Source of the DNA: an uncultured Pseudomonadales bacterium
Lineage (GTDB): Bacteria; Patescibacteriota; Microgenomatia; UBA1400; PJMF01
Direction of reading: 5' to 3'
DNA: 58,257 nucleotides
NCBI GenBank assembly: GCA_964653045.1
Contig: CAZZBW010000004.1
Location: 1 to 58,257 of the forward strand
This document shows, one piece after another, positions 36,662-46,469 of this stretch. Positions within the stretch are counted from its first letter, which is position 1. The number at the start of each line of letters is the position of its first letter. The position numbers and the translations under genes were made by a program. The notes beneath the pieces were generated by a model that worked only from the letters and a program-made list of their open reading frames with translations, was not told where the DNA came from and did not search any database.

Positions 36662-37597
36662 ATGAAGCTATTTATCACCATTCCTGCATACAACGAGGCG
36701 ACCACTATTAGCCGAGTGATTAAAGCTCTCCCTAAAAAAATTGCTGGAGCCCAGTCTGTTAAAGTCCTGGTGTGGAATGATGGCAGTAGCGATCAGACAG
36801 CCACAATTGCATCTAAAGCTGGCGCTGATTATGTGTTTTCCAGCAAACGTAACCTTGGCTTAGCTCGTACATTCGACTTAGCCAGCTCAAAGGCTGTTGA
36901 GCTTGGTGCTGACATCATCGTCAACATTGATGCAGATGATCAATACGATCCCGACGAGATTCCCCTACTGATTAAACCAATTCTTGATGATCAAGCCGAT
37001 ATCGTCAATGGTGATCGGCAGATCGATAACTTGAAACACATGCCCAGTGCCAAAAAATACGGCAATCTGCTGGGTAGTTACATTATTCGCAAGCTGACCG
37101 GACTAGAGATTAATGATGCGTCCAGTGGCTTTCGTGCCTACACCGCCCACGCTATCAACCAGCTGTTCGTGTTTTCCCGACATACTTATACTCATGAAAC
37201 CCTGATTCAAGCCGCTTTTGGCGGGCTGACGGTGGCGGAAGTACCGATTACCTTTCGCGCTCGCACCGGCTCCGCTGGTGGCTCGCGCCTCATCTCCAGC
37301 GTCCTCTCCCACATTATCAAGTCTGGCTCGACCATCATCCGCACCATTCTGATGTACCGGGCATTTAAGGTTTTTGTAATAGTTGGGTTGTTTTGGCTAT
37401 TTTGTTCCTTTGTTCTTGGGATTAGGTATTTATATTTCTTACACATTGAACCCGATGCTGGTCATGTCCAATCGTTGATTTTATCTTCGATGCTATTTAC
37501 TATGGGTTTATTTTCAATTTTTATCGGTTTAATTGCAGATTTGATTTCAATTAATCGTAAGATTTACAATAATACTTTCCAACATGGTCTCAAATAA
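36662..37597 (+). CDS. GT2 polyprenyl-phosphate glycosyltransferase (GtrB/CsbB/ArnC/DPM1-like) with two C-terminal TM helices
   Basis: 311 aa from the ATG at 36662. ITIPAYNEATTI, VWNDGSSDQT and NIDADDQYDP (DXD) motifs. Two C-terminal helices (FKVFVIVGLFWLFCSFVLGI; LILSSMLFTMGLFSIFIGLIADLI) match the GtrB-type architecture. Confidence 0.85.
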   Translation: MKLFITIPAYNEATTISRVIKALPKKIAGAQSVKVLVWNDGSSDQTATIASKAGADYVFSSKRNLGLARTFDLASSKAVELGADIIVNIDADDQYDPDEIPLLIKPILDDQADIVNGDRQIDNLKHMPSAKKYGNLLGSYIIRKLTGLEINDASSGFRAYTAHAINQLFVFSRHTYTHETLIQAAFGGLTVAEVPITFRARTGSAGGSRLISSVLSHIIKSGSTIIRTILMYRAFKVFVIVGLFWLFCSFVLGIRYLYFLHIEPDAGHVQSLILSSMLFTMGLFSIFIGLIADLISINRKIYNNTFQHGLK

Positions 37598-39161
37598 TTT
37601 CTCTGCCAATATGAAGCTACAGTTGCAGCGTACCGTACTCGAGTATGCTCCAAGGTTATTGACCCAGCTTGATCGCGACCCATTATCGCCTACTTATGGC
37701 TGTTTTGATCGAAGCTATTGGCACTATAAAATCAGAGACTTTTCATCCATGGTTCTACAGCAAAATATTCTTTCACTCGCATATTTATATCATTATCCAT
37801 TTAAAAACAGTTCATATTACCGTTCTCCGCTCATTCTTGAATTTGTTCATGCGAGTATTAATTACTGGGCTAAAACCCAACACCGAAATGGCGGCTTTGA
37901 TGAATATTGGCCGAATGAGTGTGGATATCCACCACTCGTCTTTTCTACGCACGCTGTGTTGCGGGCTATCATTTTATTAAAGCTGAAAAGTGCACCATAT
38001 AAAAAATTCCTATTAAAAGCTATCTCCCAAATTTCTCAATATCAAGAAAAAAACGCGCTGAATCAAGAAGCCGCAGGTGTTATGTGTCTTTATTATTATT
38101 ATCAGATATTTGGCGATCAAAACATTAAGAAAACTTTTGAGATTCGATTAGAATCCCTACTTAATCGCCAATCAAATGAAGGGTGGTTTCCTGAGTATGG
38201 TGGCGCTGATATAGGTTATTCTAGTGTCTTTTTAAATTACTTATCCGAGCTAGTATCTACTGAATATCACGCGCTAGTTATAGAACCACTCAGTAAGCAA
38301 ATTGAATTTTTACATAACTTTGTCCATCCAGATGGAACTGTCGGAGGTGAGTATGGTAGTCGTAACACCGAGTACTTTTTACTGTCTGGACTTGTGCGGA
38401 TGCAAAAATTTTCTAAACAAGCATCTTGGATGATAAAAAATATTAAATGGAATCTCAATAATTTAGATGATCGCTACTTATATCACTACATTTTTCATTC
38501 CTATATTGAAGGATCATATAATTTATCTGCAATTGCACCAAATTCGTTTGTTATAAAATCACAAGTACATTATTTTCCAGAGTCAGGTTTATACGTAAAT
38601 AAGTCAAGTAGTATATATTTTGTATCGAACTTAAAAAAGGGTGGTGTTTTTAAATTATATCTTAACCAAGTTCTTCATCAAAAATGTGGTGGTTATAGGA
38701 TTAAATCTGGTAATAGTTTTTTTGTAACAAATTGGTTGACAGATGCTGGCTCAGTAAAAATTAATAACTCTATGATTAAATGCTCTACATTTCTTCATAA
38801 AAACAACTTTCAGGTTATTACACCAATTAAACATTGCTTTTTGAGAATGATTGCAGTTCTGCCATATAAACAAACTATTATTTCTTCAATAAAAAAATTG
38901 TTAATACATCAAGACAAACCAACCCCTACTCTTTTCCATCGATCTTTCTCGTTTTCGAATACAAAACTGGTTATAACCGATAGTTTTACACCCCCCCAAT
39001 CTATTAATGCCGATTGGTCTATAGAAGGATCTTTGCGCTTTGTTCCATCAAGTAAATTTTATGATTCATCAGTAAATACAATTAAAGATTCTCATGCGCT
39101 CATTAATTTTCAACCAGGGAAAATGCGCACTTGGGTTATAAAGTATGACAAAAACAAGTAA
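37584..39161 (+). CDS. Hypothetical protein, possibly an (alpha/alpha)-toroid repeat enzyme
   Basis: 525 aa. Recurrent motifs QHRNGGFDEYW, QSNEGWFPEYGGADIGY and HPDGTVGGEYGSRN are spaced about 60-100 aa apart, reminiscent of the QW-type repeats of toroidal enzymes. The C-terminal ~200 aa look beta-rich. 14-nt overlap with the upstream GT2. Confidence 0.35.
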   Translation: MVSNNFSANMKLQLQRTVLEYAPRLLTQLDRDPLSPTYGCFDRSYWHYKIRDFSSMVLQQNILSLAYLYHYPFKNSSYYRSPLILEFVHASINYWAKTQHRNGGFDEYWPNECGYPPLVFSTHAVLRAIILLKLKSAPYKKFLLKAISQISQYQEKNALNQEAAGVMCLYYYYQIFGDQNIKKTFEIRLESLLNRQSNEGWFPEYGGADIGYSSVFLNYLSELVSTEYHALVIEPLSKQIEFLHNFVHPDGTVGGEYGSRNTEYFLLSGLVRMQKFSKQASWMIKNIKWNLNNLDDRYLYHYIFHSYIEGSYNLSAIAPNSFVIKSQVHYFPESGLYVNKSSSIYFVSNLKKGGVFKLYLNQVLHQKCGGYRIKSGNSFFVTNWLTDAGSVKINNSMIKCSTFLHKNNFQVITPIKHCFLRMIAVLPYKQTIISSIKKLLIHQDKPTPTLFHRSFSFSNTKLVITDSFTPPQSINADWSIEGSLRFVPSSKFYDSSVNTIKDSHALINFQPGKMRTWVIKYDKNK

Positions 39162-46024: not shown

Positions 46025-46469
46025 AACTTTACCCAATCCAGCGGTTTCTGTTGCAACCTCAGTTTTGATCATTGTCGCCTATTTATTAGCCCTCACTTAC
46101 TTTTGGCTGAATACCTCAAAGCTTGATTCTGCAATAACTTTTTATACTGAGGTGTTAGAAGCTAAAAAAGTTCCAAATAGGATAGAAATCCGAAATAGAG
46201 ATGATGAACAAATTTATAGCGGTGAAACTATTAATAATTGCATTACAATTGAGCATCAATATGCGTGTGCTCTGTTTACCAATAATACTAAATGGTTAAA
46301 CTCCGTTGATATCGTAGAAGTAACAATTGATGGTGTAGATATTGATGGTTTTACAATTCATCAGCATCAGCATTCAACTGTTATAAGTTTTGATGATTTC
46401 AGTATAGTGCTGCCCAAAACCACACGTAAAGATACTGTTATAGAACTTGCAAAGATGATTGACAAGTGA
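46011..46469 (+). CDS. Hypothetical membrane-anchored protein
   Basis: ATG at 46011 (MKKTKTLPNPAVSVATSVLIIVAYLLALTYFWL) gives one TM helix plus a ~110-aa domain. The ORF-track start 45975 is TTG. Last gene of the plus-strand operon. Confidence 0.55.
   Translation: MKKTKTLPNPAVSVATSVLIIVAYLLALTYFWLNTSKLDSAITFYTEVLEAKKVPNRIEIRNRDDEQIYSGETINNCITIEHQYACALFTNNTKWLNSVDIVEVTIDGVDIDGFTIHQHQHSTVISFDDFSIVLPKTTRKDTVIELAKMIDK

Follow-up and report, generated by a model that had tools for sequence, protein, structure and literature searches.

The window, the whole stretch of 58,257 nucleotides analyzed here, carries between positions 36659 and 46469 a row of eight co-directional plus-strand open reading frames (ORFs), most of which overlap (Table 1). 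The first four genes, encoding a GT2 glycosyltransferase, a 525-aa protein termed TOR, an FrhB-like flavoprotein and a GtrA-like membrane protein, overlap by 14, 17, and 14 nt, and the last three, encoding two large polytopic proteins and a small membrane protein, by 4 and 14 nt. Between these groups lies a cytidylyltransferase gene, preceded by a gap of 49 or 73 nt depending on the start codon chosen and followed by one of 141 nt, which may mark a boundary between transcription units. The original prediction had described these eight genes with their coordinates, overlaps, and gaps, and the ORFs confirm its account, as Pfam does the assignments to Glycos_transf_2, FrhB_FdhB_N, FrhB_FdhB_C, GtrA_DPMS_TM, and CTP_transf_like. 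Hydropathy likewise bears out the topology, with two C-terminal transmembrane helices in the GT2, some 10 or more transmembrane segments in each large protein, and one in the small protein. Absent from that account were an upstream, frameshifted UPF0104 gene and a sharp fall in GC content, from ~0.44 to 0.25–0.34, just past the junction of the GT2 and TOR genes.

Table 1. Features of the gene row and its upstream flank, in window coordinates
Feature	Coordinates	Strand	Basis
UPF0104 gene (LPG_synthase_TM, MprF-type flippase-like), frameshifted	35653-36605	+	Pfam profile
GT2, two C-terminal transmembrane helices	36659 (TTG) or 36662 (ATG) to 37597	+	Pfam Glycos_transf_2
TOR, 525 aa, polysaccharide-lyase-type fold in the model	37584-39161	+	AlphaFold2, Foldseek
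FrhB/FdhB-family Fe-S flavoprotein	39145-40497	+	Pfam FrhB_FdhB_N, FrhB_FdhB_C
GtrA-family small polytopic membrane protein	40484-40867	+	Pfam GtrA_DPMS_TM
Small cytidylyl/adenylyl-transferase	40917-41399	+	Pfam CTP_transf_like
847-aa DUF6311-family polytopic protein	41541-44084	+	precomputed Pfam, hhalign
647-aa polytopic protein, distant DUF6311 relative	44081-46024	+	hhalign
Small protein with a single transmembrane segment	45975 (TTG; 164 aa) or 46011 (ATG; 152 aa) to 46469	+	hydropathy

The GT2 (Glycos_transf_2, 1e-19) bears transmembrane segments at ~226–253 and 274–292 in a hydropathy scan. The curated proteins that it matches best are polyprenyl- or dolichyl-phosphate transferases, namely PgfS and the best NCBIfam matches AglJ (1e-30), Dol-P-hexose transferase (8e-25), PpgS (2e-16), and ArnC (6e-13), the latter four each scoring under the respective equivalog cut-off. 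The polyprenyl-phosphate glycosyltransferase relatives expected by the original prediction are thus present, and the GT2 is predicted to be a GtrB/AglJ/ArnC-like polyprenyl-phosphate sugar synthase.

TOR had been taken for an orphan, which its 1530 database matches from at least 582 species contradict. Its AlphaFold2 model (pLDDT 92, pTM 0.92) contains the toroid that had been proposed, an alpha/alpha toroid at 1–313; rather than standing alone, this domain is joined in the model to a beta-sandwich (327–520) in a full two-domain polysaccharide lyase fold of the kind found in uronate-specific lyases. The top Foldseek matches (E 9e-9 to 1e-5, TM ~0.5) are lyases of families PL8 (chondroitin AC, hyaluronate, and xanthan lyases), PL33/35, PL15/17 (alginate lyases), PL12 (heparinase III), and PL40, with the same two domains in the same order. 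Unlike these lyases, to which it is ~10% identical and shows no sequence-level match, TOR has no predicted signal peptide or transmembrane helix and is therefore taken as cytoplasmic, and its gene is tied to biosynthetic rather than degradative genes. A sequence search of the PDB gave no match, and the catalytic residues were not mappable onto lyase active sites. A conserved His-x8-Tyr spacing may echo the PL8 catalytic pair. Conserved Glu and Asp residues are numerous in TOR, which would suit a hydrolase- or isomerase-like toroid with a neutral sugar as substrate as well. A soluble protein of Haloferax volcanii, AglQ, has predicted similarity to toroid-type epimerases, GH88 hydrolases, and alginate lyases. 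It is needed while a hexuronic-acid-containing glycan is assembled on dolichol phosphate and has been proposed to be an isomerase (PMC3827465). We liken TOR to AglQ on the basis of this published description; AglQ differs in serving N-glycan oligosaccharide assembly and in having no FrhB partner. TOR is a candidate tailoring enzyme for a lipid-linked sugar.

The genomic company of TOR was surveyed in 84 non-redundant loci, out of the at least 582 species, with proximity defined as within four genes. A polyprenyl-phosphate-type GT2 gene lies near TOR in 69 of them. The order GT2, TOR, FrhB is the same in metagenomic relatives, Firmicutes, and Woesearchaeota, extends to GtrA in the Firmicutes loci, reads polytopic-GT2-TOR-FrhB-GtrA in Lachnospiraceae and Clostridium, and is permuted in Methanocalculus. 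In many genomes, the FrhB-like and TOR genes thus recur near those for a GT2, a flippase-like protein, and a GT-C enzyme, and a chance juxtaposition, the outcome that the original prediction had held open, is rejected by the recurrence of the same gene order in distant taxa.

The FrhB-like protein (FrhB_FdhB_N 4e-19, FrhB_FdhB_C 6e-25; PDB matches 8riu_B at 1e-25 and FrhB, 6qgr_B, at 7e-17) carries N-terminal cysteine motifs, CxxCxxC ... CP, and a hydrophobic and basic C-terminal tail with a hydrophobic segment at 389–407, conserved across the FrhB proteins of the cassette, by which it is probably held at the membrane. Of the 84 loci, 23 encode it near TOR by the same four-gene criterion, and in 21 the two are adjacent. 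A nitroreductase-like flavoprotein is paired with TOR in another 26, never together with FrhB, and both types of redox partner share basic amphipathic C-terminal tails. The FrhB-like protein is a candidate reductase or oxidase partner of TOR; since ~40% of TOR loci have no flavoprotein nearby, the redox step would not be obligatory.

Nucleotide sugars are the substrates of most known sugar-tailoring enzymes, and TOR and FrhB might instead take a soluble nucleotide sugar as their substrate ahead of the GT2, for example converting a UDP-uronate to an unusual donor for an otherwise ordinary three-component pathway with no remodeling at the lipid stage. The soluble character of TOR would suit such a role, as would the recurrence nearby of genes for UDP-Glc dehydrogenase (6 loci), SDRs (UXS/ArnA-like, 6 loci), and NTP transferases. 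Together with AsnB-like genes (10 loci), however, the dehydrogenase and SDR genes make up a set of recurrent uronate-related neighbors that also favors tailoring of the lipid-linked sugar. We nevertheless consider this arrangement unlikely. The nucleotide-sugar genes are the rarer companions, at 6/84 each, whereas TOR adjoins or overlaps the GT2 gene in 39/84 loci (by 14 nt in the window) with flippase-like genes flanking, and the C-terminal tails of both flavoprotein types resemble those of membrane-interface proteins. To our knowledge, moreover, enzymes of the polysaccharide lyase fold act on glycosidically linked uronates and never on nucleotide sugars. Tailoring at the lipid stage accordingly remains the preferred reading.

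Two types of putative flippase are found in the window. The GtrA-like protein (GtrA_DPMS_TM, 30.9 bits; cut-off 26.1), a candidate flippase for the lipid-linked sugar, holds the slot that GtrA-like proteins hold after GT2-TOR-FrhB in the Lachnospiraceae and Clostridium loci. A frameshift divides the UPF0104 gene between ORFs 35653–36036 and 35961–36605, which match LPG_synthase_TM profile positions 2–111 and 113–298, respectively; the identical sequence, frameshift included, is found in an independent Logan contig, L006. Intact UPF0104 homologues flank GT2-TOR in 28/84 loci, and GtrA is present in 9/84, the two never together; UPF0104 is the usual flippase-type partner in the TOR cassette, and the broken copy is probably what is left, as a pseudogene, of the flippase that the cassette had ancestrally.

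In MprF, phospholipids are flipped by a UPF0104 domain, and the UPF0104 protein GpgF, of the GpgSDF system of Pseudomonas aeruginosa, is a predicted flippase (PMC12713373, PMC5898192). The succession of glycosyltransferase, tailoring enzyme, and UPF0104 in relatives of the cassette recalls both GpgSDF (PMC12713373) and the archaeal AglD/UPF0104 neighborhoods, where UPF0104 proteins beside GT2 and PMT/STT3-like genes are predicted to be glycosylation flippases (PMC5898192). By analogy with GpgSDF, the GT2-TOR-flippase core could make a tailored membrane glycolipid for display in the outer leaflet rather than a polyprenyl-phosphate donor, the polytopic proteins being unrelated or using the glycolipid differently. 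Minimal GT2-TOR-UPF0104 triads with no GT-C partner detected, as on a Phyllobacterium plasmid and in other loci scanned four genes either way, would be in keeping with this idea. It is improbable in light of the GT2, an enzyme of the same type as AglJ, DPMS, ArnC, and GtrB that carries transmembrane helices at its C terminus, whereas GpgS is a GT4 enzyme acting on phosphatidylglycerol and its associated modifier is a deacetylase. Furthermore, it is the UPF0104 gene that is broken in the window, with GtrA present instead and intact along with two GT-C-like proteins; 47 of 87 loci scanned encode large polytopic partners near TOR; and in Dictyoglomi a UPF0104-PMT_2 GT-C fusion directly follows GT2-TOR. 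Of 10 polytopic partners scanned, 4 had matches in families of GT-C type or related to them (PMT_2, PMT, STT3, DUF6541).

The larger polytopic protein of the row had been compared with YfhO; precomputed Pfam places it in DUF6311 instead. Its core of ~580 aa (1–580) is followed by ~270 aa at the C terminus that its two closest homologues lack, an extra domain that may bind the acceptor. A profile search gathered 3868 relatives. The matches of family members among recognizable families are weak and confined to PMT_2, PTPS_related, YfhO, and DUF6311, with no transporter family matched. Aligned with PMT_2 domains by hhalign (95.4% probability, E 1.9e-8, 354 columns), the family places its conserved first-loop D38 on the PMT_2 WLDE motif, in line with the first-loop acidic motif that the original prediction proposed to look for, and has invariant residues G350, R379, and R383. 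The AlphaFold model has a pLDDT of 38.8, and a GT-C glycosyltransferase is predicted solely from profile–profile similarity; together, the PMT_2 link and the lack of transporter matches support the GT-C identity first proposed. The 647-aa protein, with seven homologues and no Pfam or PDB match, aligns with the DUF6311 profile (89.7%) and with a polytopic partner family of Clostridia (89.2%), and not significantly with PMT_2. Its family has an invariant WD(137)xxxYH motif, and the protein is possibly a second GT-C-like transferase, as judged by this transitive profile similarity of ~89%. The small protein, with its transmembrane segment at 23–41, has homologues directly 3′ of 647-aa homologues in loci L087 (35% identity, E 1e-29) and L088 (28%, E 5e-19), conservation that marks it by sequence as a partner of the 647-aa family.

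The original prediction had linked the operon to teichoic acids through a TagD-type cytidylyltransferase, a link that finds no support. The enzyme (CTP_transf_like, 1e-13) has its highest scores with RfaE-II-like proteins and an ethanolamine-phosphate cytidylyltransferase and falls far short of every equivalog cut-off: its NCBIfam scores are 49.7 bits for rfaE_dom_II (cut-off 181.5) and 28.6 bits for TagD (cut-off 165.4), and its best PDB matches are ECT (3elb, 1.5e-12), 3glv, and TagD (2b7l and 1coz). Homologues occur in only three loci, those identified being the window and its duplicate L006, and are missing from other related loci. The cytidylyltransferase is a generic, lineage-specific addition and no conserved part of the cassette.

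The host is a CPR/Patescibacteria-like bacterium, and the cassette sits in a low-GC, modular glycan island. The GC break points to a recently assembled mosaic, some parts of which may not work together. In the extreme form of this idea, the GT2 and the UPF0104 remnant would form one system, the low-GC genes that follow, TOR through the small protein, would be an import, and TOR and FrhB would be non-functional or serve another pathway. The drop from 0.44 to 0.34 and lower and the frameshift in UPF0104 are consistent with such a history, as is the placement of the closest GT2 homologue found (63% identity) in L087, a locus without TOR or FrhB. Further, the 647-aa protein and its small partner are found elsewhere without the cassette, and the syntenic Ca. 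Pacebacteria locus, whose GT2 is 59% identical, differs in gene order and partners. Low GC is, however, common in variable surface-glycan loci; the eight ORFs are intact, with short overlaps typical of translational coupling, and the order GT2-TOR-FrhB-GtrA is exactly that conserved in distant phyla. An assembly of unrelated, non-cooperating genes is therefore the least probable of the alternatives considered here, and a very doubtful one.

Several known systems resemble this gene row in part. As in GtrA/GtrB/GtrX of Shigella and Salmonella and the CsbB or GtlA, GtcA, and YfhO or GtlB proteins of Firmicutes, a polyprenyl-phosphate-type GT2 with C-terminal transmembrane helices, a GtrA-family small protein, and a large polytopic GT-C-type transferase stand in a single gene row. 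In contrast to these classical three-component systems, the window has a lyase-fold protein and an FrhB-like flavoprotein, both without signal peptides, between GT2 and GtrA; its GT-C enzyme is of the PMT_2-related DUF6311 family rather than the YfhO or GtrX type; and its further genes are those for a cytidylyltransferase and for a second polytopic paralogue and the small protein that partners it, along with the decayed UPF0104 copy. ArnD provides a precedent for tailoring a lipid-linked sugar ahead of flipping. Others are DprE1/E2 and the SDR epimerase ORF13 of Citrobacter O2 (PMC11127046), as well as GpgSDF (PMC12713373). The proposed logic by which a lipid-linked monosaccharide is made, modified, flipped, and transferred by a GT-C enzyme is shared with DprE1/DprE2, ORF13, and ArnC/ArnD/ArnEF/ArnT. 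DprE1/DprE2 convert decaprenyl-P-ribose to the arabinose form via a flavin oxidase and a reductase, following a PRPP-dependent synthase where the window has a GT2. The known tailoring enzymes, a vanillyl-alcohol-oxidase-type FAD enzyme, an SDR, or a deformylase, are unrelated to TOR and to the FrhB-like and nitroreductase-like proteins.

Taken together, we favor, at a probability of roughly 60%, a three-component-type extracytoplasmic glycosylation pathway combined with a conserved module that would tailor the lipid-linked sugar. The original prediction is thus supported in its core, a GtrB-like GT2, GtrA, and a GT-C enzyme with added remodeling enzymes, and not in its link to teichoic acid. 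As its family membership suggests, the membrane-anchored GT2 would work at the cytoplasmic face, using a nucleotide sugar to load polyprenyl phosphate with a monosaccharide, perhaps a hexuronic acid or a related sugar. TOR and the flavoprotein would then modify the lipid-linked sugar ahead of export, most plausibly, if speculatively, by abstraction of the C5 proton by TOR leading to epimerization or 4,5-elimination, with a flavin-dependent reduction to follow in loci that encode a flavoprotein. GtrA would flip the product outward in place of the ancestral, now frameshifted UPF0104 flippase, and the DUF6311 enzyme would place the sugar on a surface glycan or protein acceptor, the 647-aa paralogue and its small partner perhaps also transferring. 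Carrier lipid, sugar, and acceptor are each inferred. The tailoring module itself, for which we found no study in the literature, is carried by hundreds of bacterial and archaeal species.

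The cassette, a run of eight plus-strand genes at positions 36659-46469, was recovered with every coordinate, overlap and gap as in the original prediction, and its features and surroundings are collected below. Its first product, the GT2 enzyme, carries a Glycos_transf_2 domain and, in a hydropathy scan, the two C-terminal transmembrane segments expected of it; it probably represents the polyprenyl-phosphate sugar synthase with C-terminal helices that belongs to three-component glycosylation systems. Because its best NCBIfam matches (AglJ, Dol-P-hexose transferase, PpgS, ArnC, PgfS) all score under the equivalog cut-offs, the match holds at family level only. 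The GtrA-like protein (127 aa) exceeds its gathering cut-off and shows about four transmembrane segments, in line with its description as a four-helix protein. The FrhB-family assignment likewise stands, as both domains score above their Pfam cut-offs; with 8riu_B as the best PDB relative (1e-25), the protein can be placed by sequence as a true FrhB/FdhB family member.

Features of the cassette, its surroundings and related loci (window positions unless a locus is named)
Feature	Position	Strand	Assignment or remark
ruvB, ruvA, ruvC	21863-25119		among glycosyltransferase genes
Five consecutive ORFs	30056-34933		354, 360, 253, 354 and 202 aa; none with a Pfam match
NYN-domain gene	34988-35521		after the five-ORF block
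UPF0104 (LPG_synthase_TM)	35653-36605		two ORFs, directly upstream of the cassette
GT2	36659-37597	+	Pfam Glycos_transf_2, 1e-19
TOR (525 aa)	37584-39161	+	
Low-GC island	about 38000-50000		GC 0.25-0.40 vs ~0.42-0.47 elsewhere
FrhB-like	39145-40497	+	FrhB_FdhB_N and FrhB_FdhB_C, 68.9 and 88.4 bits
GtrA-like	40484-40867	+	GtrA_DPMS_TM, 30.9 bits (gathering cut-off 26.1)
Cytidylyltransferase	40917-41399	+	Pfam CTP_transf_like, generic family only
847-aa protein	41541-44084	+	PF19830 (DUF6311) by precomputed annotation
C-terminal extension of 847-aa protein	43281-44084		residues about 580-847
Two adjoining genes for DUF5648-containing proteins	53076-57184	-	
Nitroreductase-like protein with C-terminal extension, L001 (Pacebacteria)	11566-12216		
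LPG_synthase_TM-PMT_2 fusion, L031 (Dictyoglomi)	9556-11829		
647-aa/small-protein pair, L087 (metagenomic)	1848-7840		
647-aa/small-protein pair, L088 (metagenomic)	1355-4169		

The second product, the 525-aa protein TOR, had been taken for an orphan. It has 1530 homologues at E ≤ 1e-3, spanning Woesearchaeota, Methanocalculus, Methanoperedenaceae, Atribacteria, Clostridia, Planctomycetes, Anaerolineae and other groups, and with one genome scanned per species it turned up in at least 582 species. Our searches found no characterised member of the family, Pfam gave only a marginal Pec_lyase match, and single-sequence and family-profile searches of PDB returned nothing significant. An AlphaFold2 model from a 42-sequence alignment (pLDDT 92, pTM 0.92) consists of an N-terminal alpha/alpha toroid (residues 1-313) and a C-terminal beta-sandwich (327-520). 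Its top 33 Foldseek matches in PDB are all polysaccharide lyases of the same architecture (E 9e-9 to about 1e-5, TM-scores near 0.5, ~10% identity): PL8 chondroitin AC, hyaluronate and xanthan lyases, PL33/35 glycosaminoglycan lyases, PL15/17 alginate lyases, PL12 heparinase III and PL40 ulvan lyase. As modelled, TOR has the fold of these enzymes, an alpha/alpha toroid followed by an antiparallel beta-sandwich. To our knowledge, the matched enzymes all take the C5 proton off a uronic acid. A terpene-cyclase-like lipid binder was also considered and rejected, the type II cyclase MstE giving a much weaker Foldseek match (6e-4) that covers the toroid only.

About 40 polar or aromatic positions of TOR are invariant, among them H248-x8-Y257, R260, N261, Y264 and N160; the invariant acidic positions include E107, E112, E204 and D209, and R297 is also conserved. 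Conservation of this pattern indicates a real enzyme. The conserved residues N160, H248, Y257, R260, N261, Y264 and R297 are candidates for the Asn/His/Tyr/Arg catalytic set of polysaccharide lyases. The protein has no transmembrane segment by hydropathy and no evident N-terminal signal peptide in its sequence, and so should be cytoplasmic. It departs from secreted or periplasmic, polymer-acting lyases in its setting as well, its gene overlapping the GT2 and FrhB genes in a biosynthetic context. No homologue was found in phages, and there is thus no evidence for phage seroconversion.

The setting of TOR is widely conserved. We called open reading frames in 87 loci with TOR homologues, clustered the neighbours and annotated cluster representatives; co-occurrence within four genes of TOR was then counted in 84 loci, after removal of two duplicates and one locus with an uncalled TOR. 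An AglJ/GtrB-type GT2 is present in 69 of the 84 loci (42 of the 47 with full flanks) and directly adjacent in 39. FrhB-like proteins occur in 23 loci and nitroreductase-like flavoproteins in 26, never in the same one; UPF0104 flippase-like proteins occur in 28 and GtrA in nine, again never together. The window's own UPF0104 gene was left out of these counts because its fragments failed to cluster with intact genes. Further neighbours are methyltransferases (14/84), B12/radical-SAM enzymes (10/84), AsnB-like amidotransferases (10/84), UDP-glucose dehydrogenases (6/84) and UXS/ArnA-like SDRs (6/84). GT2 and TOR are thus found in conserved linkage with a flavoprotein and a flippase-like protein, the alternatives at each of the latter two positions being mutually exclusive, and many loci add a large polytopic protein, often of GT-C type where scanned. 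The window arrangement itself (polytopic protein, GT2, TOR, FrhB, GtrA) recurs in Lachnospiraceae and Clostridium. In Geosporobacter, GT2, TOR, FrhB and UPF0104 come after an 880-aa polytopic protein; Methanocalculus has GT2-FrhB-TOR with UPF0104 alongside and AglB/STT3 and two UDP-sugar dehydrogenases nearby; and the minimal triad, GT2-TOR-UPF0104, is present in a cultured Phyllobacterium. The redox partner of the cassette is optional and replaceable. The expectation that the FrhB/525-aa pair would recur with glycosyltransferase genes elsewhere is borne out, and the neighbourhood counts identify the pair as part of an old, modular, widespread cassette, not a chance insertion.

The FrhB-like protein falls far short of the equivalog models TIGR03289 (86.6 bits, cut-off 331.5) and PRK09325 (102.6, cut-off 269). 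The window genes scanned include no FrhA/FrhG, Fdh or Fpo partner subunit, and its neighbours are glycan genes. CPR bacteria and Clostridia, as far as we know, are without F420. Ferredoxin or another donor would more likely feed its Fe-S/flavin centre than F420, by analogy with BciB and HCAR, family members that work in this way. For the alternative, nitroreductase-like protein, the highest scores are to BluB and to the C-terminal domain of FbiB. These two flavoprotein types, unrelated in fold, alternate beside TOR, and across loci L001-L083 both extend past the catalytic domain; the extension combines a hydrophobic or amphipathic helix with a conserved 'LP' and a basic tail, as in residues about 345-450 of the window protein, whose hydrophobic C-terminal segment is seen in the hydropathy scan. 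The extensions suggest docking to the membrane surface or to a partner.

Proteins of the UPF0104 family have been predicted as glycosylation flippases beside GT2 and PMT/STT3-like genes (PMC5898192). In the window both flippase types are present, and the UPF0104 copy is frameshifted: its two open reading frames abut on the Pfam profile (positions 2-111 and 113-298), with the frameshift near 35.96-36.04 kb, and the same sequence, frameshift included, occurs in an independently assembled Logan contig (L006). Since UPF0104 and GtrA never occur together in the related loci examined, the window looks like an ongoing replacement, with UPF0104 being swapped for GtrA as the flippase candidate and caught in progress. 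The same family bears on a different end product, a tailored glycolipid of the GpgSDF kind (PMC12713373). The corresponding triad, an intact UPF0104 gene by those of a synthase and a modifier, is found in 28 of the 84 related loci and is lacking in the window; we consider this outcome unlikely.

The transfer step would fall to the large membrane proteins, for which the original prediction had named YfhO among the families to search. Neither the 847-aa nor the 647-aa protein matches YfhO (PF09586) even at E 10. Neither of them, nor the small anchored protein (164 aa), gave anything significant in the Pfam scan, and PDB searches with both large sequences and with the 847-aa family profile were equally negative. 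By hydropathy, each large protein has ~10 or more transmembrane segments and the small protein has one. Only two close homologues of the 847-aa protein turned up in a word-indexed database, against 3868 relatives when 1.8 billion representatives were searched by profile; precomputed annotation places the protein and its homologues in PF19830 (DUF6311). Our local Pfam hmmscan of the protein did not report DUF6311 even at E 10, and we therefore relied on profile-profile comparison. The family profile (58 sequences) aligns with PMT_2 domains over 354 columns (hhalign probability 95.4%, E 1.9e-8). Within the family G350, R379, R383, P468 and G498 are invariant and D38, H149 and E466 at least 90% conserved; the loop immediately behind the first transmembrane segment contains D38, which aligns with the PMT_2 WLDE motif, so the sought first-loop acidic motif was located. 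Family members weakly match PMT_2, PTPS_related, YfhO (one of the 58, at 2.4e-4) and DUF6311, all of which we take to be GT-C clan families. On this sequence evidence, the 847-aa protein is a probable GT-C enzyme with a first-loop acidic residue.

In Dictyoglomi (L028, L031, L036, L041, L042), LPG_synthase_TM and PMT_2 are fused in single proteins encoded directly after GT2-TOR, and the DUF6311 profile matches these fusions in their PMT_2 region (hmmsearch, 1.7e-9); the fusion ties flipping to transfer. Among polytopic partners from other loci, four of the ten scanned match PMT_2, PMT, STT3 or DUF6541. Direct BLASTP against the large proteins of two related loci (L001 and L004) gave one local match around LSLGP...MRAxxRW and otherwise little, and an AlphaFold2 model of the 847-aa core from a 3-sequence alignment was unusable (pLDDT 38.8). 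The C-terminal ~270 residues of the protein are an extension absent from its two closest homologues and lacking any Pfam match; this extension may bind the acceptor, by analogy with a GT136 enzyme that carries a C-terminal CBM (PMC11127046).

The 647-aa protein has seven homologues, no family assignment, no Pfam or PDB matches and an invariant WD137xxxYH motif. Its profile aligns with those of DUF6311 (hhalign 89.7%, E 1.9e-6) and of a Clostridia polytopic partner family (89.2%), and not significantly with PMT_2 (1.2%). Its pairing with the small anchored protein is conserved and recurs in two related metagenomic loci that lack TOR and FrhB, L087 and L088; the GT2 of L087, 63% identical to that of the window, lies beside a LAB_N-methyltransferase fusion.

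The cytidylyltransferase, described earlier as TagD/RfaE-II-like, retains only the generic part of that assignment: it scores 28.6 bits against the TagD equivalog TIGR01518 (cut-off 165.4) and higher, 49.7 bits, against rfaE_dom_II. Its best solved relatives are human ECT, an ethanolamine-phosphate enzyme (3elb, 1.5e-12), an RfaE-like archaeal protein and TagD. Since it belongs to a generic family and no other related locus carries it, the proposed teichoic-acid link is left without support. A role as a RibL-type FAD synthetase serving FrhB is also unsupported, the RibF-related matches being weak (~1e-3).

The window is of bacterial origin and encodes a Mur ligase, a PBP transpeptidase, RuvABC, many glycosyltransferases, one PMT_2 and one Wzy_C protein. 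Its synteny with a Candidatus Pacebacteria contig (L001) makes a CPR/Patescibacteria host most likely. The two share the order RuvC-GT4-GT4-PMT_2-epimerase, with identities of 42% for RuvC, 42% and 51% for the two GT4 proteins, 40% between the 540-aa protein and PMT_2, and 56% for the epimerase; GT2 and TOR are 59% and 48% identical. At the equivalent position the Pacebacteria cassette is built differently, in the order TOR homologue, nitroreductase, GT2, LAB_N and a 599-aa DUF6311 protein, which matches the deeper profile of the 847-aa family (E 8e-20). The five-ORF block, between the epimerase gene and the cassette, is missing there. At the far end of the window, one of the two DUF5648 proteins has an S8 subtilase whose prodomain is fervidolysin-like, and the other an InlB B-repeat-like domain. 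A promoter and terminator scan of the region gave chance-level output.

Base composition changes abruptly within the cassette, from a GC content of 0.44-0.52 in UPF0104 and GT2 to 0.25-0.34 in the seven genes downstream. The low-GC island begins a short way into the 525-aa gene and extends through convergent GT2 and methyltransferase-GT1 genes, which suggests an imported or fast-evolving glycan block. This break, and the 63%-identical GT2 that works without TOR, would fit a gene row that is a mosaic of parts that do not cooperate; set beside the conserved linkage of GT2, TOR and their partners, such a mosaic seems very improbable.

On the reading we favour, that of a cooperating cassette, GT2 would load a sugar on polyprenyl phosphate; TOR, with FrhB where present, would modify it at the cytoplasmic face; GtrA would flip it in place of the decayed UPF0104 gene; and the DUF6311 GT-C enzyme would transfer it outside the membrane. 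The uronate-specific lyase fold, the AsnB-like, UDP-glucose dehydrogenase and UXS-like neighbours and the AglQ precedent (PMC3827465) together point to a uronic acid as the TOR substrate. The chemistry suggested is at the uronate C5, either epimerisation or 4,5-elimination, and in flavoprotein-bearing variants, more speculatively, the resulting enol ether, conjugated with the carboxylate, could then be reduced. Comparable enol ethers are reduced by MurB and by the C-terminal domain of FbiB (on dehydro-F420-0). In its most specific form, to which we assign a probability of roughly 0.12, this reading is a new two-step chemistry on a polyprenyl-phosphate-linked uronate: TOR would beta-eliminate the 4-hydroxyl to give a 4,5-unsaturated uronate, and the FrhB-like or nitroreductase-like flavoprotein would reduce it to a 4-deoxy or C5-inverted donor. 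That the tailoring instead takes place on the nucleotide sugar is a doubtful alternative.

Three-component systems are a main means of post-polymerisation surface-glycan diversification in bacteria and archaea. We know of few cases of chemistry on the lipid-linked monosaccharide itself, namely ArnD, one SDR epimerase and DprE1/E2, of which DprE1 is a major drug target in tuberculosis. The ORF13 epimerase acts as an auxiliary enzyme on the lipid-linked donor in three-component glycosylation (PMC11127046). With these enzymes the cassette shares the idea of auxiliary enzymes on a lipid-linked donor. What is new is the tailoring module, a lyase-fold protein in biosynthesis together with FrhB or nitroreductase flavoproteins; our literature searches found no published description of this module or of DUF6311. 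A protein with a polysaccharide-lyase fold appears to have a biosynthetic role here, linked to flavoproteins and flippase candidates that are each interchangeable.

TOR is kept beside a polyprenyl-phosphate GT2 across CPR bacteria, Clostridia, methanogens and Woesearchaeota, and since cultured carriers exist, the question of its reaction is directly testable; candidates are Geosporobacter ferrireducens, Orenia marismortui, Phyllobacterium sp. A18/5-2, Lyngbya aestuarii BL J and Methanocalculus sp. AMF5. Solving it would assign function to a large family of 'hypothetical proteins', to the FrhB-like proteins that organisms lacking F420 commonly encode in their glycan loci, and to DUF6311, possibly with a new sugar modification. 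If the two-step reading is true, GT-C enzymes would place a 4-deoxy or C5-inverted uronate on surface glycans, and the cassette would constitute a widespread bacterial and archaeal route to a sugar modification installed at the lipid-linked stage.
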